From positions 1 to 36,363 of the forward strand of contig CAZFBP010000001.1 in NCBI GenBank assembly GCA_964517255.1: 36,363 nt of DNA. Reading direction: 5' to 3'. A model generated the notes under the pieces. That model made no database searches and was not told where the DNA came from. It saw nothing but the letters and a program-made list of their open reading frames with translations. Of the stretch, positions 1,677-17,200 are shown in pieces (positions within the stretch are counted from its first letter, which is position 1; every line of letters begins with the position of its first letter). The DNA is from an uncultured Chryseobacterium sp. (GTDB lineage: Bacteria > Bacteroidota > Bacteroidia > Flavobacteriales_F > PHOS-HE28). The translations under genes were made by a program, and so were the position numbers.

Positions 1677-1722
1677 AGGGCTGGTGCGGCACCCTCACCT
1701 TCGGCATGCGAAACCCGATGCC

Positions 1723-2589
1723 ATGAGCGCCGATGCCGCACCCGCCTCCGCCACGCCCGCGAGCAACACCGGTTCGGGGCTCTTCCAAGTGGCGCCTTCC
1801 CTGGCGCGCAGCCCCTTGGGCATCATCGCGCTCTTCATCCTGCTGGTGTACGCCATCGCGGGCATCGTGTGCGCCACGTGGAAGCCGCCGGTGCCCGACC
1901 TGCTGCTCTGGTTCATCGTGGGCTTCCCGGTGCTGGTGTTCGTGGTGTTCACCTGGCTGGTGGTGGAGCACCACTTGAAGCTCTACGGGCCGGGCGATTT
2001 CAATGATCAGAACCACTTCCTCGCCATGCAGAAACTGGGCGAAGTGCAGAAAGCCGCGGAATTGCTGCAGCCCGAGCTCAGCGCCGTAGGGCTCCCGGAC
2101 CAGGTGAATCCGGCCAAGCTCGCGGCCGAGGCCATCGCGCTCCTCAAGCGCGGCATGCCGTCTGTTCCAGCGCCCGCGCCAGCGAACGTGCGCGCGGCGA
2201 CCGCGGCTCGCACCACCGATGCCAGCAACGACGACCCGCAGAAAGGGAAATGGGGCGGGCAGAGCGAGCGCGATGGTTACAAGGTCTATGTATCGGGCAA
2301 CACGGTGCGGGAGATCACGCCCGACCTCTTCCGTTTCACCTTATGCGTGAGCAGCATGTCTGATGCGGAACCGTTGACCGCCCCGGTCCGGTTGCATCTG
2401 CACGACAGCTTCGATCCCATGGTTCGCATGCTGAACCCGGAGAACGGCCAGGTGCGCGTGCCCATGGTGGTGTACGGCTCCTTCACCGTGGGCGTGGAGG
2501 TGCTGGTGCCGGGCCACGAGCCGGTGCGGCTGGAGCTCGACCTCGCCGATCCATCGATCCATTCCCCACAGGCCTTCAAAGACCGTTGA
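1723..2589 (+). CDS. Membrane protein with two N-terminal TM helices and a C-terminal prokaryotic YEATS-like (pYEATS) beta-sandwich domain
   Basis: TM1 is LGIIALFILLVYAIAGIVCATW and TM2 is LLLWFIVGFPVLVFVVFTWLVV. The C-terminus (DDPQKGKWGGQSERDGYKV...FRFTLCV...PLTAPVRLHLHDSFDP...VPMVVYGSFTVGVEV...PVRLELDLAD) matches my recollection of the pYEATS family pattern (DP.KG.fGG....nGr...f.v.l.V...PL.g.V.FhLHptF...a.GaFTvGa....t.LELDLa). The ATG at 1723 is preferred over the ORF-track start at 1684. Confidence 0.55.
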   Translation: MSADAAPASATPASNTGSGLFQVAPSLARSPLGIIALFILLVYAIAGIVCATWKPPVPDLLLWFIVGFPVLVFVVFTWLVVEHHLKLYGPGDFNDQNHFLAMQKLGEVQKAAELLQPELSAVGLPDQVNPAKLAAEAIALLKRGMPSVPAPAPANVRAATAARTTDASNDDPQKGKWGGQSERDGYKVYVSGNTVREITPDLFRFTLCVSSMSDAEPLTAPVRLHLHDSFDPMVRMLNPENGQVRVPMVVYGSFTVGVEVLVPGHEPVRLELDLADPSIHSPQAFKDR

Positions 2590-2592
2590 TGC

Positions 2593-3309
2593 ATGAATGA
2601 CCGACTCCTGCCCAAGTGGCTGCAAGCCGTCTTCCTCCTGCTGCCCGTGCTGCTCATCGTGCTCTTCGTGGGCGCGAGCTACTGGCAGGTGAAGGATGTG
2701 AGCGATGGCATCATGGCGCGCGAGCGCGCGGACCTGAGCGCGCTCTGGAGCGCGCAGCCCGGCGATAGCGCGCTCACCAGCGGCGAGTACGCGAGCCTGG
2801 TGAAGTGGCGCGCGCTGGTGGCCATGGAGCACGAGGCCATCGCGCAGCGCTACGAGCAGGGCGGCATCCTGGCGGTGTCGCGCATCACCACCAAGTACCT
2901 CGGCTTCCTCACGGGCATGATCATGGCCATCGCCGGGGCCATCTTCATCGTGGGCCGCATCAAGGAGGGCGAGAGCACGGCGAAGGCCAGCCTCGGCGAG
3001 CGCTCCTTCAGCCTGCGCTCCACTTCGCCCGGCATCTTCTTCGGCGCGCTGGGCACCGTGCTCATGGCCCTCACCATCCAGCAGCACACCGACATCGGCA
3101 TCACCGACACGCCGCTGTACCTGCACCCCACCAACACCTACCTGCTCGACGCGCGTCGCGACACGCGCTCCGACGCGGCCTTCATGAACGCCATCACCGC
3201 GGGCGCCGCCACAGCGCCTGCTCCCGCCGCAGCGGCTGGCGATACCACGGCTCAATCGTCCACGCCGGAACCCAGCGCGGTGGATCCCGCCACCGTGAAG
3301 AAGCCATGA
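2593..3309 (+). CDS. Hypothetical 3-TM membrane protein with an Ala/Pro/Thr-rich C-terminal tail
   Basis: The ATG lies 3 nt after the upstream stop. The TM segments are WLQAVFLLLPVLLIVLFVGASYW, YLGFLTGMIMAIAGAIFIVG and GIFFGALGTVLMALTI. Its TGA (3307-3309) overlaps the next ATG (3306-3308). Confidence 0.65.
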   Translation: MNDRLLPKWLQAVFLLLPVLLIVLFVGASYWQVKDVSDGIMARERADLSALWSAQPGDSALTSGEYASLVKWRALVAMEHEAIAQRYEQGGILAVSRITTKYLGFLTGMIMAIAGAIFIVGRIKEGESTAKASLGERSFSLRSTSPGIFFGALGTVLMALTIQQHTDIGITDTPLYLHPTNTYLLDARRDTRSDAAFMNAITAGAATAPAPAAAAGDTTAQSSTPEPSAVDPATVKKP

Positions 3310-4688
3310 GGCCCCGCCGCCATCTCCTCTTCGCGATCGCGCTCGTGTGCGCATCGCTCGCCCACGGGCAGTCCATCATTCCCGTGAACCGCTTCCTCAC
3401 CTTGCTGGAGCAGCAGGACTTCAACCGGCTGCACGCCGAGGCGCAGGCGGTGCGCGAGGGTCCGTGCGGCAAGCACTACGTGGTGGACTATTTCATCGCG
3501 CGCTCGCTGTGCGGATCGCCCGGCCTGGAGAGCAGCGGTCGCGAATGGTTCGATTACCTCCTGGACCATTACGCCATCCCCAAGGAGCTGCTGGGCGCTT
3601 TCCGCACGGACCGCACGGCATGCGCCTCGGGCGGCAGTGCCGCAGCAAGCCCTGCATTCGACCCGCGCTATCTGCGGCTGGAGATCGACCCCAGCAGCGT
3701 GCGCGGCAAACTGGGCCCGCTCGGCGATTGCTTCGGCACCAAGAAGAAGCCGCTGCACCCGGACCAGCCGCGCCTCACCGAGCAGCTCAACGACCTGAAG
3801 AGCAACTTGATCCCGGTGCAGCGCGCCGATACCGCCGAGGGCATGCGCGTGCTGCGCGGCGCACTAGGGAAGAAGTACCGCATCGCGGTGCACGACCCCT
3901 TCATCCTTGTGGCGCCCAAAGGGCTCAAGGACAAATTGCTGGAGGACCAGGTGGCCGATGAGCTGCGCCGCGCAGCCGAGTACTACGTGAGCGAATTCGG
4001 CTTCGAGCTGCCGCCCTATTACATCATCGCAGGCCTCATGCACGACTCGAAGGCGCTGACGGAATTGAGCAAGGCCTCCCACGGCTTCGCGCTGCCCAAG
4101 GAGTACTTCGGCTATTCGCACACCGGCGACATGTCGCTCTTCACGCGCTCAATCATGGGCAGCGTGGCCACCGCGCGCCACGAGCTCTTCCACCTGCTGG
4201 CGCGCACCAACTCCGGCGACCTGCCGCCCTGGCTCGATGAAGGAGTGGCCAGCGTACTGGAGGCCTCGGAATGGAAGGAGGGGAAATTGAAAGGCAAGCT
4301 GACGTACGGCTACAACTACCGTCTTGAAGCCCTGCAGAACGCACGCCACCTGCGCGAGGTGAGCCAGGCCATACCGCGGATCGATGCGTTGGTGGACATG
4401 GGCTGGGAGCGCTTCGAGGGCCGCGACGATGATCCGGAATGCATCCTGGCCCTGCACTACGCCGTGGCCAAGCACTTCGCGCTCTTCCTGCAGGAGGAAG
4501 GCAAGCTCGCTGCGGTGCTGCGCGCGCACCAACGCCTGGTGACCACCGACGCGGAGGGCAGGACCCGATTCCGCACGAGCCATCAGGTCACCGAGGAGGC
4601 GCTCGGCGAACCGCTCAGCGTTGTCCGCGCCCGCTACGAGATGTGGTTCAAGGACACGTACGGCTTCGACCCATACAAGCCATTCTGA
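3306..4688 (+). CDS. Secreted HExxH metallopeptidase-like protein (MA clan, DUF1570/Peptidase_MA_2-like)
   Basis: The internal ATG at 3306 of ORF 2805..4688 gives a classic signal peptide (MRPRRHLLFAIALVCASLAHGQS). The motif HELFHLL...PPWLDEGVASVLE corresponds to HExxH plus the downstream WL.EG.A glutamate seen in MA-type peptidases. The portion upstream of 3306 overlaps gene 2593..3309 in another frame. Confidence 0.55.
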   Translation: MRPRRHLLFAIALVCASLAHGQSIIPVNRFLTLLEQQDFNRLHAEAQAVREGPCGKHYVVDYFIARSLCGSPGLESSGREWFDYLLDHYAIPKELLGAFRTDRTACASGGSAAASPAFDPRYLRLEIDPSSVRGKLGPLGDCFGTKKKPLHPDQPRLTEQLNDLKSNLIPVQRADTAEGMRVLRGALGKKYRIAVHDPFILVAPKGLKDKLLEDQVADELRRAAEYYVSEFGFELPPYYIIAGLMHDSKALTELSKASHGFALPKEYFGYSHTGDMSLFTRSIMGSVATARHELFHLLARTNSGDLPPWLDEGVASVLEASEWKEGKLKGKLTYGYNYRLEALQNARHLREVSQAIPRIDALVDMGWERFEGRDDDPECILALHYAVAKHFALFLQEEGKLAAVLRAHQRLVTTDAEGRTRFRTSHQVTEEALGEPLSVVRARYEMWFKDTYGFDPYKPF

Positions 4689-4691
4689 GCC

Positions 4692-6458
4692 ATGCCTCTG
4701 CTCGACCTCCACGCCCACTTCAGCTTCAAGCCCGCGAACAGCAGCGGCGCCGATGGCCGCCTGCCCGACAGCAACCACTGGCGCGAGCGCTTCAAGGACC
4801 CCGCCGACTTCAGCCGCTTGATCACGCTGCTGGACCGTGAGGCCGTGAAGAGCAGCCAGCTGCATGGTGATGCGGCCACGGTGGGCGGCTTCCGCGTGGT
4901 GGTGAACGCGTTGTACCCGCTGGAGAAAGGGTTCACTTCGGTCATCTTCAACCGCGAGCTGGCCACCCTCACGGGCCACGACGTGGCCGTGCTGGAGGCC
5001 ATCAATGAGGACCGCATCGCGCCGTTCACCCTGCTCTGCCGCGAGTACGGCAACCTGCTGGCATCCGAACGCGCGGAGCGCGCGCAACGGATCAGTGCCG
5101 TAGGCAATGCCTTCCGCCTGGTGAAGGACTACAACGGCATCGTGGCCGCGCTGCGCGAGGACCCCGCCACCATCTGCATCGTGAACAGCGTGGAGGGCGC
5201 GCACGCCTTCGGCGACCTGCTGCTCGATGCGCGCGGCAACCCCCGGAGCATCCACGACGCCGAGCACGTGCACCTGCGCGGCGTGGGCAACGGGCCACGC
5301 CGCCACGAACTGCGCCGCTGGGTGCAGGCCACGCGCACGAACATCGAGCGCGTGAAGACCACTTGGTCGCAGCCGCCCTTCTTCGTCACGTTCGCGCACC
5401 ATTATTACAACCACCTCTGCGGGCACTCGCCCAGCCTGATGGCCTCCATCAACGCGCTGTGCAAGCAGGATGGCCGGGTGTACGATGAGGCCGGCCAGGC
5501 GCGGGTGCGCTATTTCGACCTGGGCATGCGCACCTGGGGACAGGAGGTGATGGATGAATTGCTGAGCCGCCAGAGCTCCACCAGCCAGCCCGTGCGCCGC
5601 ATCCTCATCGACACCAAGCACATGAGCCCGCAGGCGCGCGTGGACTACTACACCCACCTGGTGCTGCGCAGGCAGCAGGGCGACAAAGTGCCCATCGTGG
5701 TGAGTCACAGCGCGGTGAGCGGCCGCCGGAGCCTGCAGGACACCATCGCGCACAACAACAACCCGGGGGCGGACTTCGATCTGCGCCCTGGTGAGGAAGT
5801 GAGCACGCGCTACTTCTACGATGGCGTGATCAACCTCTTCGACGACGAGATCCAGCGCGTGGTGGCCACCGATGGCATCATGGGCCTGATGATCGACGAG
5901 CGCCGCATCATGGGACGCGAGATCCCGCCCGAAGGCGGCGTGACCATGGACACCTTCACCGCGCGCAGCAAGGCGATGCGCGGCCTAATGCACGACTGGA
6001 CCATGCTGAAGCAGCGCCATGCCTGGGGCCGTGTGAATGCGGCCGACTTCGCCAACCAGCTCGCGAGCATCAACCGCCAGATGGAGCCCTTGCTCGCCGA
6101 TCTGCGTCCGGCCTACCTGAGCGTGGTGTTCCGGCAGCTCTTCCACATCATGGCGCTGGTGGGCGAGCGCGGCTGGAACCATGTGGCACTCGGCACGGAC
6201 TACGACGGCGTGATCAATCCGATCGACATCTACAAGCAGAGCAGCGACATGGCACGCCTGCGCCAGGACCTCATCGATTTCTGGAACGCCAGCCTCAACA
6301 GCCCCGATGCCGAAGTACGCGCGCTGTACACGCTGCACGGCTACGGCCAGGACCCGGCCGTGTGGGTGGACAAGCTGCTCTGGGGCAACGGCATGGACTT
6401 CCTCCGCAAGTACTACAACGACGACTACCTCCTTCACGGGCAGCAGCCCATCATCTGA
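4692..6458 (+). CDS. Peptidase M19 (membrane/renal dipeptidase)-like amidohydrolase-fold protein, unusually long (588 aa), no signal peptide
   Basis: An M19-like motif series is present: LDLHAH (metal-binding N-terminus), NSVEGAHAF, VTFAHHYYNH, IVVSHSAVSG and VALGTDYDGVINPI (compare GsDfDG). The ATG lies 3 nt after the upstream stop. Confidence 0.55.
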   Translation: MPLLDLHAHFSFKPANSSGADGRLPDSNHWRERFKDPADFSRLITLLDREAVKSSQLHGDAATVGGFRVVVNALYPLEKGFTSVIFNRELATLTGHDVAVLEAINEDRIAPFTLLCREYGNLLASERAERAQRISAVGNAFRLVKDYNGIVAALREDPATICIVNSVEGAHAFGDLLLDARGNPRSIHDAEHVHLRGVGNGPRRHELRRWVQATRTNIERVKTTWSQPPFFVTFAHHYYNHLCGHSPSLMASINALCKQDGRVYDEAGQARVRYFDLGMRTWGQEVMDELLSRQSSTSQPVRRILIDTKHMSPQARVDYYTHLVLRRQQGDKVPIVVSHSAVSGRRSLQDTIAHNNNPGADFDLRPGEEVSTRYFYDGVINLFDDEIQRVVATDGIMGLMIDERRIMGREIPPEGGVTMDTFTARSKAMRGLMHDWTMLKQRHAWGRVNAADFANQLASINRQMEPLLADLRPAYLSVVFRQLFHIMALVGERGWNHVALGTDYDGVINPIDIYKQSSDMARLRQDLIDFWNASLNSPDAEVRALYTLHGYGQDPAVWVDKLLWGNGMDFLRKYYNDDYLLHGQQPII

Positions 6459-6464
6459 CGCACC

Positions 6465-7283
6465 ATGCGCTCCGAAGACGGATTCATCCTGATGAACGGC
6501 GACGAGTTCGCGCGATACCTGGCCACCGCGCACGTGCCGCGCGCGGTGGTGCGGCTGCAGAACCACCACACCTACATCCCCGGCTACGCCCATTTCAAGA
6601 ACGACAATCATTTCTCGTTGCTGCGCAGCATGAAGCGCAGCCACGTGCAGCAGCGCAAGTGGCGCGACATCGGGCAGAACCTCACCACCTTCCCCGATGG
6701 CACCATCGCCGTATGCCGTCCGCTCGCGGAGACGCCTGCCGCCATCTACGGTGCCAACACCGGCGCGATGGCCATGGAGCATGTGGGCTGGTTCGATACG
6801 GGCGAGGATGCCATGACGGCGGCCCACAAGGAGATCATCGTGCAGGCCAATGCGCTGCTGTGCAAGCGCTTCAACCTGGTGCCGGGCACGGAGAGCATCG
6901 TGTACCATCACTGGTACGACCTCAACACCGGCAAGCGCACCAACGGCACGGGCGTCACCAAGAGCTGCCCGGGCACGGCCTTCTTCGGCGGCAACACCGT
7001 GCAGGCGGCGCAGGCCCATTTCATCCCGCTGGTGCAGCAGGCCCTTGCCGGCTTGCAGGCCGGAGCAGCGCCTGCGGCATGGCCTGCGCTGGGCAGCGGC
7101 GCCGTTGATGCCGACGCGTTGAACGTGCGCGACCGGCCCGCCACCAGCGGCGCGGTGCTGCGCAAGCTTCGGCGCGGCGACCGCGTGCAATGGTTCGCCG
7201 AGAGCGCCGCCTACGGCTCCATGCCCTGGGTGCGCATCGATGCCAGCCGTGAGGAATGGGTGGCGAAGCCTTACATCCAATGA
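6465..7283 (+). CDS. N-acetylmuramoyl-L-alanine amidase (Amidase_2/PGRP fold) with a C-terminal SH3b domain; no signal peptide
   Basis: Zn ligands of the T7-lysozyme type are present (LQNHHTY ... IVYHHWY ... TKSCPG). The C-terminus (ALNVRDRPATSGAVLRKLRRGDRVQW...WVRIDASREEWVAKPYI) is a typical SH3_3 pattern. The N-terminus MRSEDGFILMNGDEF is not hydrophobic. Its TGA overlaps the next ATG. Confidence 0.75.
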   Translation: MRSEDGFILMNGDEFARYLATAHVPRAVVRLQNHHTYIPGYAHFKNDNHFSLLRSMKRSHVQQRKWRDIGQNLTTFPDGTIAVCRPLAETPAAIYGANTGAMAMEHVGWFDTGEDAMTAAHKEIIVQANALLCKRFNLVPGTESIVYHHWYDLNTGKRTNGTGVTKSCPGTAFFGGNTVQAAQAHFIPLVQQALAGLQAGAAPAAWPALGSGAVDADALNVRDRPATSGAVLRKLRRGDRVQWFAESAAYGSMPWVRIDASREEWVAKPYIQ

Positions 7284-8407
7284 CATCGTCCGTGATCAAC
7301 GACGCGTTGCCCAAACTCACCTGGCGCTGGGTCATCATCCTGAGCTCATTGCTCATCGCATTGGCCATCACCTACGGCGTACTGCATGGCCACAACACGC
7401 GCGCGGGCACCGGCCGCGAGCGCGTCTCGCTGGAGAAGGAGGACGTGGACCTGCTGCGCCGTGTACTGGAGGTGACTGACACCTCGGCTGCTGCGGGCCA
7501 GCCCAGGCTCATGGCCGGGCATCCAGCACGCGAAGCCTTCGTGGGCATCCTCGATACGCGTCTGCCCAAATGGGCGCATGACGATCGCGATGCCAAGCTG
7601 AAGGTGATGGACGCGCTGCGCCCGGCGGATGCATTGAGCTACGTGAGCATCACGCGTTTCGAGGTGCGCAGCTTCTTCTGGCTCACCGGCTGGCCCGCTG
7701 TGATGGAACTGGTGTTCTGGACGCTCTTCGGGTCGTTGTGCAGCCTGCTCTACAACATCTACGACGTGCGGCGGCGCAACGCCATCGAGAATCGTAACAC
7801 GCCCGATGGCGCGGAGCGCGGCTTCGATGCGAGCGAGATGCCCAACCACCTGGCCAAGCTGGTGTTCTCGCCCTTTGTGAGCATCGTGGTCGTCTTCGGC
7901 TACAAGTACATCGCGGAGGGCGGCAGCAAGGGCGTGCTGGAGACGAGCACCGGCGTGGTCATCATGTCCTTCCTCCTCGGCTTCTACAGCGCGCGCGCCA
8001 TGCGCATGCTCGACCGCATCAAGGATGTGCTGCTGCCGTATGACAACAAGCCTTCGGACCCCTCATCCCCGCCGAAACCCGCGAGCCAGGCCTTGGTCTC
8101 CATCGCCCTGAGCCTCGACCCCTCGGTGGTGAGCGCGCATCCGCAGGACGTGGAAGAGATGCAAGCCGAGCTGCGCGGTGCCGCTATGACCTTGACGCCC
8201 GAAGGCGATGGCAAAGCCGCTGCAACCGTGCTCGATGCGGACGAGGAGCGGGCCTGCTTCAGCGCGCAGGTTCGCACAGGGCGGTACTCGGTGAAGGCGC
8301 ATTGCGCATGCACCAACGGCCTGAACCTCGTGGGCGAGTCGGTCATTGAGGTACAGGGCGATGTCACGGTTCCGCTTCCACTAAAGGCCGACGAGACGAA
8401 CGGCTGA
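7280..8407 (+). CDS. Hypothetical 4-TM membrane protein with a beta-rich C-terminal domain
   Basis: ATG at 7280 overlaps the upstream TGA (7281-7283). The TM segments are WRWVIILSSLLIALAITYGVL, FFWLTGWPAVMELVFWTLFGSLCSLLY, LAKLVFSPFVSIVVVFGYKYI and GVVIMSFLLGFYSARAM. The tail (GRYSVKAHCACTNGLNLVGESVIEVQGDVTVPLPLK) resembles Ig/CarboxypepD_reg-like sandwiches. Confidence 0.6.
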   Translation: MTSSVINDALPKLTWRWVIILSSLLIALAITYGVLHGHNTRAGTGRERVSLEKEDVDLLRRVLEVTDTSAAAGQPRLMAGHPAREAFVGILDTRLPKWAHDDRDAKLKVMDALRPADALSYVSITRFEVRSFFWLTGWPAVMELVFWTLFGSLCSLLYNIYDVRRRNAIENRNTPDGAERGFDASEMPNHLAKLVFSPFVSIVVVFGYKYIAEGGSKGVLETSTGVVIMSFLLGFYSARAMRMLDRIKDVLLPYDNKPSDPSSPPKPASQALVSIALSLDPSVVSAHPQDVEEMQAELRGAAMTLTPEGDGKAAATVLDADEERACFSAQVRTGRYSVKAHCACTNGLNLVGESVIEVQGDVTVPLPLKADETNG

Positions 8408-8484
8408 ACGGGCGGCGCATTTGTCGATTGGTCTGAGCCTAATCCGCTCGTGGCCTCCCGGCCGACTCAAGCGATTAATGAGCA

Positions 8485-8506
8485 AAGGCCCCGTTGCCGG
8501 GGCCTT
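8485..8506. terminator. Bidirectional hairpin terminator between convergent operons
   Basis: AAGGCCCCG-TTGC-CGGGGCCTT forms a perfect 9-bp stem. It lies between the stop at 8407 (+) and the stop at 8532 (-). Confidence 0.6.
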
Positions 8507-8531
8507 CGCGTGGTCGATCGCATTCAGTTCC

Positions 8532-16253: not shown

Positions 16254-17165
16254 CTAGCTGCCCATCTGCTGCTTGGCCTCGATGCTCAGGGTGGCGTGCG
16301 GCACCAGGCGCAAACGCTCTTTGCTGATCAAGCGGCCGGTGACGCGGCAGATGCCGTAGGTCTTGTTGCGGATGCGCAGCAGCGCGTCCTCCAGGTGCTT
16401 GATGAACTTCTCCTGGCGGCCGGCGAGCTGCGCGGTCTCCTCGCGGCTCAGCGTCTCGCTGCCATCCTCGATCATCTTGAACGAGGGGCTGGTGTCGTCG
16501 GTGCCGTTGTTGTCGGTGTTCGCGAGCGTCTGCTTCAGAAGGTCGTAATCGCGCCGGGCCTCATCGAGCTTGTGCATGATGATCTCCTTGAACTCATCGA
16601 GCTCGTCGTCGTTGTAGCGCGCTTTGTCGGCGCTCTCCAAAGTGCTCACTTGCTTCTTCACCACGGGCGGCGTAACGGGGCGCATGGGCGCGCTTACTTG
16701 CGTCACCAACGGTGCTGCGGGGGCTTTCGGTTCCTTCGGTTCCTTCTTCGATTCCTTCTTCACGGGTTTCGGGGCGGCCACGGGGGCCGGTTTAGGTGCT
16801 GGTTTGGCCGTTGCGGGCGCAGGCTTCGGCGCGGGAGCGAGTTTCGCTGCCGCCTTCGGTTGCGGCTTGGGGGCTGGCTTCGCTTCCGGCTTTTTAGCCA
16901 CAGGCTTCGGCGCTGGTTTCGCGGCGGGCTTCACAGCGGGTTTGGGCTGGGGCTTCGCGACGGGTTTGCTCGCGGCTGCGGGCTTGCCTGCCGGGGTCGG
17001 CTTCTTGGCTACAGGCTTAACGGCTTTCACGGGTTTCGTCTTGGCCTTCGGCTTCGCGACGGGCTTGCTGGCCTTGGCGGGCTTCGCAGCAGGCTTCTTC
17101 GCGGCAGGCTTCGTGGCCTTCTTGGCTACGGGCTTGGCCGGCTTCTTCGCGGGTTTCTTGGCCAT
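16254..17165 (-). CDS. DksA/TraR-family regulator with a roughly 160-aa Ala/Lys/Pro-rich (histone H1-like) N-terminal extension
   Basis: The C-terminal half (ETLSREETAQLAGRQEKFIKHLEDALLRIRNKTYGICRVTGRLISKERLRLVPHATLSIEAK) has the DksA/TraR coiled-coil plus finger layout. ATG at 17165 (MAKKPAKKPAK...) is preferred over 17195. The N-terminus consists of KPA/KPV/PKP repeats. Confidence 0.7.
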   Translation of the reverse strand: MAKKPAKKPAKPVAKKATKPAAKKPAAKPAKASKPVAKPKAKTKPVKAVKPVAKKPTPAGKPAAASKPVAKPQPKPAVKPAAKPAPKPVAKKPEAKPAPKPQPKAAAKLAPAPKPAPATAKPAPKPAPVAAPKPVKKESKKEPKEPKAPAAPLVTQVSAPMRPVTPPVVKKQVSTLESADKARYNDDELDEFKEIIMHKLDEARRDYDLLKQTLANTDNNGTDDTSPSFKMIEDGSETLSREETAQLAGRQEKFIKHLEDALLRIRNKTYGICRVTGRLISKERLRLVPHATLSIEAKQQMGS

Positions 17166-17192
17166 GACGACAGGGGTTTTGTAAAAGGTCCG

Positions 17193-17200
17193 CAAATATA
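17193..17200 (-). promoter_or_regulatory. Candidate Bacteroidota -7 box (TAtaTTTG on the minus strand) for dksA/traR-lspA
   Basis: Exact TAnnTTTG match, 28 nt upstream of the ATG at 17165, in the 49-nt gap after ileS. Confidence 0.4.

Follow-up and report, generated by a model that had tools for sequence, protein, structure and literature searches.

This text concerns a cluster of six same-strand open reading frames (ORFs), g1 to g6, which occupies positions 1723-8407 of a stretch of contig CAZFBP010000001.1; the window, as used below, is the whole stretch of DNA that was analysed, 36,363 nt in length. The six ORFs are joined by gaps of +3, -4 (ATGA), +3, +6 and -4 (ATGA) nt, a spacing from which their transcription as one operon is plausible. 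The main finding is that the cluster is a composite of two modules conserved independently of each other in Bacteroidota, module A (g1-g2-g3) and module B (g4-g5-g6). The genes are listed here, with transmembrane (TM) segments counted from hydropathy and protein lengths in amino acids (aa).

1723-2589, plus strand: g1, 288 aa, two TM segments and a C-terminal pYEATS domain; module A, candidate sensor or adaptor
2593-3309, plus strand: g2, 238 aa, three TM segments and a low-complexity Ala/Pro/Thr tail; module A
3306-4688, plus strand: g3, 460 aa, signal peptide, HExxH...E gluzincin-like putative metallopeptidase; module A
4692-6458, plus strand: g4, 588 aa, leaderless, predicted divergent M19 amidohydrolase fold with about 200 aa of insertions; module B
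6465-7283, plus strand: g5, 272 aa, leaderless Amidase_2 + SH3b protein, predicted N-acetylmuramoyl-L-alanine amidase of the endolysin type; module B
7280-8407, plus strand: g6, 375 aa, about four TM segments, novel, coupled to g5 via ATGA; module B

Two separately conserved modules and their setting

The full six-gene order is found only in the window and in one related locus, L039, which is 85-93% identical to it (related loci are designated by L numbers throughout). The sequence-only reading of this DNA, which preceded the present analysis, had taken the six genes for a single syntenic system and had proposed to look for the same order in other genomes; this part of it does not stand, for g1-g3 and g4-g6 occur without each other. 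Module A is found alone in L105/L106, where the homologues of g1, g2 and g3 (45, 53 and 52% identical) keep the same +3/-4 junctions and no g4-g6 is present. In L107 (7979-9195) g2 and the greater part of g3 have been deleted, so that a g1 homologue (51%) is followed by no more than the final ~60 codons of g3; in L108 the g1 homologue is solo. The next gene in L107, on the opposite strand, belongs to an exported '458-aa' family, which is represented also in L043, next to g4, and in L110, where its gene stands between g4 and g5. Homology of the L110 member to g3 was considered and rejected (hhalign probability 0.3%).

Module B occurs without A in L002/L003 and in L112/L113. The TetR-OEP-MFP-AcrB operon that lies downstream of the cluster, encoding a resistance-nodulation-division (RND) efflux system, is common to the window and to these loci (56-86% identity), and because of it they are regarded as the orthologous locus. 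A more distant version of module B is encoded in L110/L111 (g5 60%, g6 33% and g4 25% identical), with two extra genes between g4 and g5. It is part of a long co-directional cluster that includes a leaderless CHAP+SH3 protein, a 2-TM protein, a DUF900 hydrolase, a 5-TM protein and a metallo-beta-lactamase-fold protein, and that ends at a type I HsdR gene. In all three pairs of loci the g6 homologue adjoins the g5 homologue.

The gene upstream of g4, whichever it is, is tightly joined to it, at 3 nt in the window and at 11-17 nt in relatives, and in the latter the space upstream of g4 is especially prone to gene replacement. In L002 it is occupied by two exported proteins of 534 and 420 aa, which were considered as diverged versions of g1-g3 and rejected, both being unrelated exported proteins. 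A 135-aa ORF upstream of g4 in L112 (3408-3815) consists of the fused C-terminal ends of these two proteins (L002, 7112-9989); as it is a deletion remnant, the slot upstream of g4 turns over quickly.

One explanation of the composite is fortuitous adjacency, by which at least two unrelated small operons were packed together in one lineage and have no joint function. The occurrence of modules A and B apart in other genomes, their union in the window and L039 only and the replacement-prone region upstream of g4 all speak for it. Yet g3 and g4 are separated by 3 nt and g4 stands close to its upstream gene in every relative; the pYEATS domain, rare as it is, lies near M19-like genes also in L040 and L087, and another g1 relative adjoins an Amidohydro_3 gene. 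On balance, chance packing appears quite improbable.

Three elements flank the genes:

1633-1676, no strand: perfect palindrome of 44 bp, with 22-nt arms that are 100% complementary and no spacer
1693-1722, plus strand: leader, the 30 nt directly 5' of the g1 ATG, with a GGCAU...AUGCC hairpin
8482-8509, no strand: GC-rich 3' hairpin, with 12-nt arms that are 92% complementary and a 4-nt loop

The palindrome lies in the interval from the stop of the upstream gene, at 1614, to g1. No second copy of it occurs in the window, where the chance expectation is 0 matches, and its region folds as RNA much more strongly than shuffled sequences (z = -6.2). Its core is kept in L039, a relative up to 93% identical, and it probably serves as a terminator or insulator hairpin or as an operator. 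The leader is identical in the alignment of the window with L039, in which the bases between leader and palindrome diverge; the small hairpin found by folding ends beside the g1 AUG, and the leader may be a translational control element. The 3' hairpin lies between the convergent g6 and AcrB-type pump genes and is a candidate bidirectional terminator, which has no U-tract and is not listed by the consensus terminator scan; both the U-tract terminator scan and the sigma-70 promoter scan are uninformative for this organism.

Among the annotated ORFs of the window, which are a subset, the genes flanking the cluster are cellular (the RND efflux operon, isoleucyl-tRNA synthetase (IleRS) and an M28 peptidase), with no phage structural or integrase gene, and no tRNA lies within the window. 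On the six genes and their junctions, the perfect palindrome, the 3' hairpin and the lack of a flanking tRNA, the sequence-only reading was exact. The GC content at third codon positions (GC3) of g1-g6 is 0.84-0.92, and that of the neighbouring IleRS, M28 peptidase and RND genes 0.84-0.95; since the two match, a signature of recent horizontal transfer is rejected for the cluster.

Two further genes of the window may be mentioned. Upstream of the cluster, positions 389-850 encode a 153-aa protein that has a 48% identical homologue at L001 (412-813), a locus from a Flavobacteriales metagenome-assembled genome (MAG), where ~5.5 kb separate it from the g4 homologue further downstream; the surroundings of g4 thus seem to belong to a chromosomal backbone common to the clade. 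On the minus strand, positions 16254-17195 hold an ORF of 313 aa whose DksA/TraR C4 zinc finger is confined to the very C-terminal end (residues 279-309); it is much longer than canonical DksA.

The encoded proteins

The pYEATS domain of g1 (PF20305, residues 203-274) scores 37.7 bits against a cut-off of 26.9 (E=1.9e-9), and the two TM segments span residues 32-50 and 63-81. The pYEATS profile matches the structures of the eukaryotic YEATS proteins Yaf9, YEATS2, Taf14, AF9 and ENL (E from 3e-4), its motifs LHDSF and YG(A/S)F aligning with LHDTY and WGEF of Yaf9. The corresponding residues of g1 are H227, S229, F230, Y251 and F254, of which H227 and F254 are at least 90% conserved; I take these positions to be the ones that line the acyl-lysine pocket in the AF9/Yaf9 structures. 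For g2 there is no significant match to Pfam, NCBIfam, PHROG or PADLOC families, and neither g1 nor g2 matches a holin family.

The family of g3 comprises 581 representatives and keeps the motif H292-E293-x-x-H296...E312, with E293 and E312 invariant and H292 and H296 at least 90% conserved. The match of g3 itself to DUF1570 is weak (E=0.08; 13.7 bits, below the cut-off of 22); among its relatives, 10 of 35 match DUF1570 and 4 of 35 match Peptidase_MA_2. Searches of PDB sequences with g3 alone and with a 35-sequence profile gave no match. From its sequence, g3 is a putative exported peptidase on the fringe of DUF1570/Peptidase_MA_2.

The amidase g5 has neither a signal peptide nor a TM segment. 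Its SH3_3 and Amidase_2 matches (37.5 and 27.3 bits) are both above the Pfam cut-offs, and it matches endolysin and amidase families of PHROG. Residues H34, H35, H148, H149, K166 and C168 are invariant in five homologues, and the site is of the His-His-Cys type (KSCPG) of T7 lysozyme and peptidoglycan recognition proteins, not of the His-His-Asp type of AmpD. Outside its own clade, g5 has its nearest relatives among amidases encoded on viral contigs: an alignment-query scan of IMG/VR returned 15 such contigs (L118-L132) with relatives at 36-57% identity. The amidase of L118, a contig of 32% GC, is 50% identical to g5 over the full length including SH3b, and that of L119 is 57% identical over the catalytic domain. 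A tblastn search of GenBank phages gave no match for g5 or the L118 amidase, and none for g1; because of this the g5 amidase family is known only from uncultivated viral contigs.

The layout of the viral loci is informative as well. In L118 the amidase is preceded by a 100-aa ORF with a C-terminal TM segment and followed by a 66-aa 2-TM ORF; in L119 it stands between a 92-aa 1-TM ORF and a 72-aa 2-TM ORF. Both lie downstream of large ORFs that were read by eye as tail genes, and the holin label of the small TM ORFs was likewise given by eye from the sequence. Small TM ORFs flank the amidase in 13 of the 15 viral loci, and all of the viral amidases share the leaderless N-terminus of g5. From its architecture and its homology to these amidases, g5 is predicted to be an endolysin. 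The family holds 50-57% amino acid identity between a 65%-GC Bacteroidota chromosome and the 31-38%-GC viral contigs (L118-L132), a conservation unusually strong for an endolysin across such distant hosts.

The M19-fold protein g4, likewise devoid of a signal peptide and of TM segments, matches Peptidase_M19 (PF01244) at 39.6 bits against a cut-off of 26, with partial coverage (residues 380-529). Sequence-only searches of PDB were empty with the single sequence and with a 32-sequence profile, and structure prediction alone resolved the fold. With the AlphaFold2 model (predicted local distance difference test score, pLDDT, 93) as query, all 19 Foldseek matches in PDB at E<=0.001 are M19 enzymes, with target-normalised TM-scores of 0.54-0.70; they include Sco3058 (6e-11), DPEP1, DPEP3, GliJ and PvdM. 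By this model, g4 has the M19 TIM-barrel fold. Residues E168, H310, H339, H497 and D503 are invariant in the 32 sequences and are presumably the M19 ligands, going by the motifs EGGH, D-x-S-H, SHS and GxDFDG. Among close relatives D5, H7 and H9 are invariant, the N-terminal motif being HxH and not the HxD of M19.

The g4 family is rare, with 46 proteins in a search of 5.8 billion clusters, and its closest named members come from Flavobacteriales MAGs. A metagenome scan with g4 alone gave no match, a scan of the genome collection found only relatives at <=30% identity, and scans of IMG/VR gave no match for either the g4 or the g6 family. Distant M19-like homologues (~25% identity) are encoded on NZ_CP095064.1 (Hymenobacter volaticus), NZ_CP114769.1 (H. 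canadensis) and CP012852.1 (Persicobacter sp.), which are large plasmids or secondary replicons, one of them predicted to be mobilizable.

The last gene of the cluster, g6, encodes the most unusual product. Its TM segments are accompanied by an extra-membrane helical domain (residues ~44-130) and a C-terminal beta-sandwich, and its family, which has a conserved TM core, counts 13 members in the 5.8-billion-cluster search. The model has an overall pLDDT of 71 and is confident only for the C-terminal beta-sandwich, which resembles immunoglobulin (Ig), CarboxypepD_reg and CopC-like folds; in Foldseek this sandwich alone found matches (best E=8.6e-3), with none in PDB for the TM part. After g5, g6 takes the position that the holin, a label read by eye, has in the viral amidase cassettes.

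For the proteins, the sequence-only reading thus fares well. It had called the pYEATS domain of g1, an HExxH peptidase with a signal peptide in g3, an M19-like g4 without one, the endolysin architecture and intact zinc ligands of g5, and a 4-TM g6 with a beta-rich tail, as well as the TM counts of 2, 3 and 4 for g1, g2 and g6 and the lack of a signal peptide in g4 and g5; all of these are supported by the profiles, conserved residues, viral homologues and models described above. Its statement that the genes match no known defence system agrees with PADLOC-DB v2.0.0, in which none of the six proteins has a match at E<=1.

The same reading had offered, as an alternative to lysis, a salvage pathway around an AmpD-like amidase. 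In its present form this would be a lineage-specific peptidoglycan turnover or muropeptide and peptide salvage operon, in which g5 would detach stem peptides from N-acetylmuramic acid (MurNAc) and the resulting L-D dipeptides, L-Ala-D-Glu for example, would be hydrolysed by g4 in the cytoplasm. Uptake or sensing of wall fragments would fall to the membrane proteins, and the trimming of envelope proteins to the exported peptidase. Nearest in structure to the g4 model are M19 enzymes of bacteria that were crystallised with mimics of L-Xaa-D-Xaa dipeptides, 3s2j (L-Leu-D-Ala) and 3ly0 (an L-Ala dipeptide mimic), and because M19 relatives act on L-D dipeptides, salvage keeps some plausibility. M19-like genes keep a wall hydrolase gene as partner, the locus is chromosomal, in the same position in relatives and of native GC3, and the six genes, negative in PADLOC, encode no NTPase or nuclease of the defence type. 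The cytoplasmic recycling enzyme YkfC, moreover, also carries SH3b domains.

Several observations are at odds with salvage. The His-His-Cys site of g5, its SH3b domain and its viral-contig relatives are not those of an AmpD-type enzyme, and no ampG, nagZ, ldcA or mpl-type gene is present in the gene lists of the related loci; these points weaken the AmpD-like alternative. The families of g4 and g6 are extremely rare (46 and 13 of 5.8 billion), unlike a housekeeping pathway, and the patatins, DUF900 lipases, S8 protease and pYEATS proteins that accompany M19-like genes (see below) have no place in such a pathway. Finally, with no more than 3-4 TM segments, g6 and C1, a membrane protein family found in related loci, are unlike any known transporter. 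Salvage is considered here as an unlikely explanation.

Recurrent neighbourhoods and a possible lysis or release cassette

About 95 loci anchored on M19-like genes were compared by ORF clustering and phmmer. One architecture returns among them in versions built of non-homologous parts: an M19-like protein, a wall hydrolase that has a wall-binding domain but no leader, and a multi-TM protein. A case in point is C1, a conserved 3-TM protein family: in L088 and L091 the genes for an M19-like protein, a CHAP+SH3 protein and C1 follow each other with gaps of 2-10 nt, and in L043 and L044 CHAP is followed by C1. As a g6 homologue C1 was rejected (hhalign probability 0.3%), and a sequence-only search of PDB with the family gave nothing useful. 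The L011 locus of Pedobacter sp. SYSU D00535 combines an M19-like gene with a GerE regulator and a patatin, ~2 kb from a g6-like gene, which is followed after 44 nt by a leaderless PG_binding_1+VanY/M15 peptidase in place of g5. An operon of Fulvivirga imtechensis AK7 (L014) encodes C1, an S8 subtilase, a 681-aa protein, a patatin and an M19-like protein.

Recurrent neighbours of the M19-like genes are DUF900 (6 loci), patatin (5, including L011), Amidohydro_2 (7 loci) and S8 subtilase; the patatin, DUF900, S8 and CHAP enzymes of the related loci are signal-less. Regulators of the NarL/GerE type are also found near M19-like loci, IS110 insertion sequences adjoin L001 and L087, and type I restriction genes adjoin L040 and L110. 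In L040 (9950-11617; JGI 3300053041, Ga0530620_0003) the g4 homologue, 55% identical, aligns only from residue 27 and is without the N-terminal D-x-H-x-H motif; it abuts and overlaps the HsdM start of a type I restriction-modification (RM) + GmrSD island, by whose insertion it was probably truncated.

Swapped partners of this kind could also be expected from interbacterial antagonism. The leaderless hydrolases (amidase, CHAP, VanY, lipases, M19) would be effectors of a secretion system encoded elsewhere, and the adjacent multi-TM proteins (g6, C1 and a 2-TM 239-aa protein) would confer immunity. Hydrolase/TM-protein pairs do recur with non-homologous partners, like effector-immunity pairs, the loci are variable, with gene decay and replacement, and the hydrolase classes match known anti-bacterial activities of effectors. 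However, none of the six proteins has a PAAR, Rhs, MIX or C-terminal type IX secretion (T9SS, Por_Secre_tail) domain, and no secretion-system gene is found among the annotated ORFs of the window. With 375 aa and a conserved TM core, g6 is unlike the small periplasmic binders that neutralise wall amidases, and the architecture of g5, leaderless N-terminus included, is orthologous to that of the viral-contig amidases. An effector-immunity arrangement is thus held to be improbable; both it and chance adjacency are less likely explanations.

As for the genes that accompany pYEATS, the domain is found near M19-like genes in three independent contexts: the window with L039, L040 and L087. In L040, whose RM and GmrSD island adjoins, a pYEATS gene (Pfam E=3e-13) lies 2.6 kb from the g4 homologue, in a locus that also includes a transglutaminase-like peptidase. 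In L087, 10 nt separate a pYEATS gene (Pfam E=1e-16) from the stop of an M19-like gene that is 24% identical, and DUF900 and IS110 are present as well. These three contexts were found within ~1.3 Mb of M19-anchored DNA, and pYEATS has ~200 matches in the 5.8-billion-cluster search; on these counts the link between pYEATS and M19 is judged probably not to be chance.

Other relatives of g1 keep different company. In L114 a relative with two TM segments and pYEATS lies between a split Amidohydro_3 gene and the gene for a 1545-aa STAND-like NTPase. In L116 a 2-TM pYEATS relative occurs among caspase, phospholipase C, SH3+HNH and CHAT genes, with a divergent KAP NTPase that matches QatA models. Here the co-directional genes (L116, 4103-16351; JGI 3300051851) encode a 518-aa protein, a 103-aa protein, the 2-TM pYEATS protein, a 768-aa protein and a caspase-like C14 peptidase, and the cluster also includes a phospholipase C-type phosphoesterase, an SH3+GmrSD_C HNH nuclease, DUF1232, a CHAT protease and a receiver protein; its gene content has the look of a separate multi-effector system not described before. 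The pYEATS domain is fused to SIR2_2, CHAT, FRG and, very often, receiver domains as well. Dozens of proteins of ~260 aa (P0074-P0125) consist of a receiver (Response_reg) and a C-terminal pYEATS-like region, and pYEATS therefore seems to be a response-regulator output domain in many phyla, with Pectobacterium and Nocardia among the carriers. The conflict or lysis flavour that the sequence-only reading had given to the cluster gains support from these neighbours, that is, the three adjacencies with M19, the caspase, CHAT, phospholipase C, KAP and STAND genes near g1 relatives and the type I restriction genes beside two loci. A literature search found no paper describing pYEATS in the library searched and none relevant to M19 in combination with phage or defence.

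Taken together, sequence and gene context point tentatively, with a probability that I would place a little short of even, to a domesticated and membrane-gated lysis or release cassette joined to a pYEATS sensor module, akin to a type 10 secretion system (T10SS) or to abortive infection (Abi). Module B would be a domesticated phage-type lysis cassette made of g4, the endolysin g5 and the coupled g6. Upon a trigger, g6 would let the cytoplasmic g5 amidase reach the peptidoglycan, and the breach of the envelope would lead either to cell death, in the manner of abortive infection, or to the release of co-encoded signal-less hydrolases from a subpopulation, in the manner of a T10SS. For g4 either of two roles is proposed, that of released cargo or that of a component degrading the released stem peptides. 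In this lineage module A would have been placed upstream, with pYEATS as candidate sensor or regulator and g3 acting on envelope proteins outside the inner membrane. The same mechanism would fit abortive infection equally well, a role suggested by the genes found near pYEATS and by the restriction and insertion-sequence (IS) neighbours.

A number of points weigh against the lysis or release cassette. No recognisable holin family accounts for g6, which matches nothing in Pfam, NCBIfam, PHROG or PADLOC and which, at 375 aa, far exceeds the usual size of holins. Nor was a spanin-like gene recognised: the ORF lists, with no dedicated search made, include no evident embedded gene pair or small lipoprotein, and the spanin equivalents of Bacteroidota are poorly defined. 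One would not readily expect a dipeptidase in a lysis device, and the constant presence of the M19-like protein is partly by construction, because nearly all loci were found via the M19-like gene; an independent, g6-anchored set of loci also always has an M19-like gene nearby. The link between modules A and B is confined to this lineage. To the negative PADLOC result is added that the six genes comprise no NTPase, nuclease or other classical defence component. The locus is chromosomal, vertically kept by the same RND operon and of native GC3, which fits a lineage-specific housekeeping function equally well.

A bolder variant, which must be regarded as improbable, is a reader-eraser circuit that controls a programmed breach of the bacterial envelope. 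The membrane-anchored pYEATS domain of g1, which retains the His/Ser/aromatic residues with which eukaryotic YEATS domains read acyl-lysine, would have an acylated amine as its ligand. This might be acyl-lysine carried by a protein of the envelope or of a phage, or else a piece of wall or lipid bearing an N-acyl group. Binding would license the phage-derived endolysin and g6, the latter as a new kind of membrane gate that is not a holin, and the signal would be hydrolysed by the metal-dependent amidohydrolases whose genes lie beside pYEATS genes, M19-like in three contexts and Amidohydro_3 in a fourth. If true, it would represent a new class of lysis, defence or release system in Bacteroidota and the first functional context for a prokaryotic YEATS domain.

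Should the lysis or release cassette itself be borne out, domesticated lysis cassettes would extend to Bacteroidota, with a membrane partner unrelated to any holin and a recurrent three-part architecture that tolerates non-homologous swaps. It would also give prokaryotic YEATS its first concrete gene context, in which the pocket is conserved and amidohydrolases are repeatedly linked to it. A wall-peptide salvage operon would be, instead, of modest and lineage-specific interest. As related clusters are present in the cultured Pedobacter sp. SYSU D00535 and Fulvivirga imtechensis AK7, the predictions are testable by genetics and exoproteomics.

Comparison with known systems

Multi-effector conflict systems, some of them with peptidoglycan-targeting effectors, have been described by comparative genomics (Kaur et al. 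2020, eLife, PMC7159879); pYEATS is unmentioned there, 'Yeats' being the name of an author. In common with such systems, g1-type pYEATS proteins are fused to or clustered with CHAT, caspase and KAP/STAND NTPases, whereas the cluster of the window has no NTPase and no effector-associated adaptor domains.

The resemblance to AmpD/AmiD-type recycling consists of a cytoplasmic Amidase_2 protein which, together with a peptidase, could in principle process stem peptides. The differences are the Cys as third zinc ligand and the SH3b domain of g5, its viral-contig relatives, the lack of ampG, nagZ and ldcA near the cluster or in related loci, and a rare and patchy phyletic spread.

The canonical holin-endolysin cassette of phages is exemplified by the PBSX-type xhlA-xhlB-xlyA. 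At 50-57% identity, g5 is close to, and leaderless like, the viral amidases that stand between small TM proteins, and g6 follows it with a start/stop overlap, as the putative holin follows the amidase in L118/L119. In contrast to phage cassettes, the cluster occupies the same chromosomal locus across ~55%-identical relatives, and g6 is 5-6 times larger than the putative holins of L118/L119, to which it is unrelated.

The closest described kind, by analogy, is the T10SS. It comprises holin/endolysin/spanin clusters outside phages, which free signal-less cargo, transcriptionally coupled to them, by lysis of a subpopulation (PMC10847048); domesticated lysis cassettes of this kind are Serratia ChiWXYZ and Yersinia entomophaga YenLC (PMC10847048, PMC13284979, PMC9527704). 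Since g6 matches no holin family and spanins were not found, membership is not established, the predicted endolysin being the component in place. The cluster departs from the T10SS in g6, with its 375 aa, about four TM segments, two soluble domains and no similarity to holins; in the lack of a recognised spanin; in an Amidase_2+SH3b enzyme, as opposed to the L-Ala-D-Glu endopeptidase or muramidase of T10SS; in the constant M19-fold partner; and in the upstream pYEATS/3-TM/HExxH module. Its host is a member of the Bacteroidota, and the cited T10SS examples are from Enterobacterales. What the two share is a chromosomal, non-prophage cluster that encodes a leaderless wall hydrolase with an adjacent membrane protein, signal-less hydrolases in the same predicted transcription unit (the candidate cargo g4 is signal-less and ends 6 nt before g5), regulators beside related loci, and an origin in a phage endolysin family.

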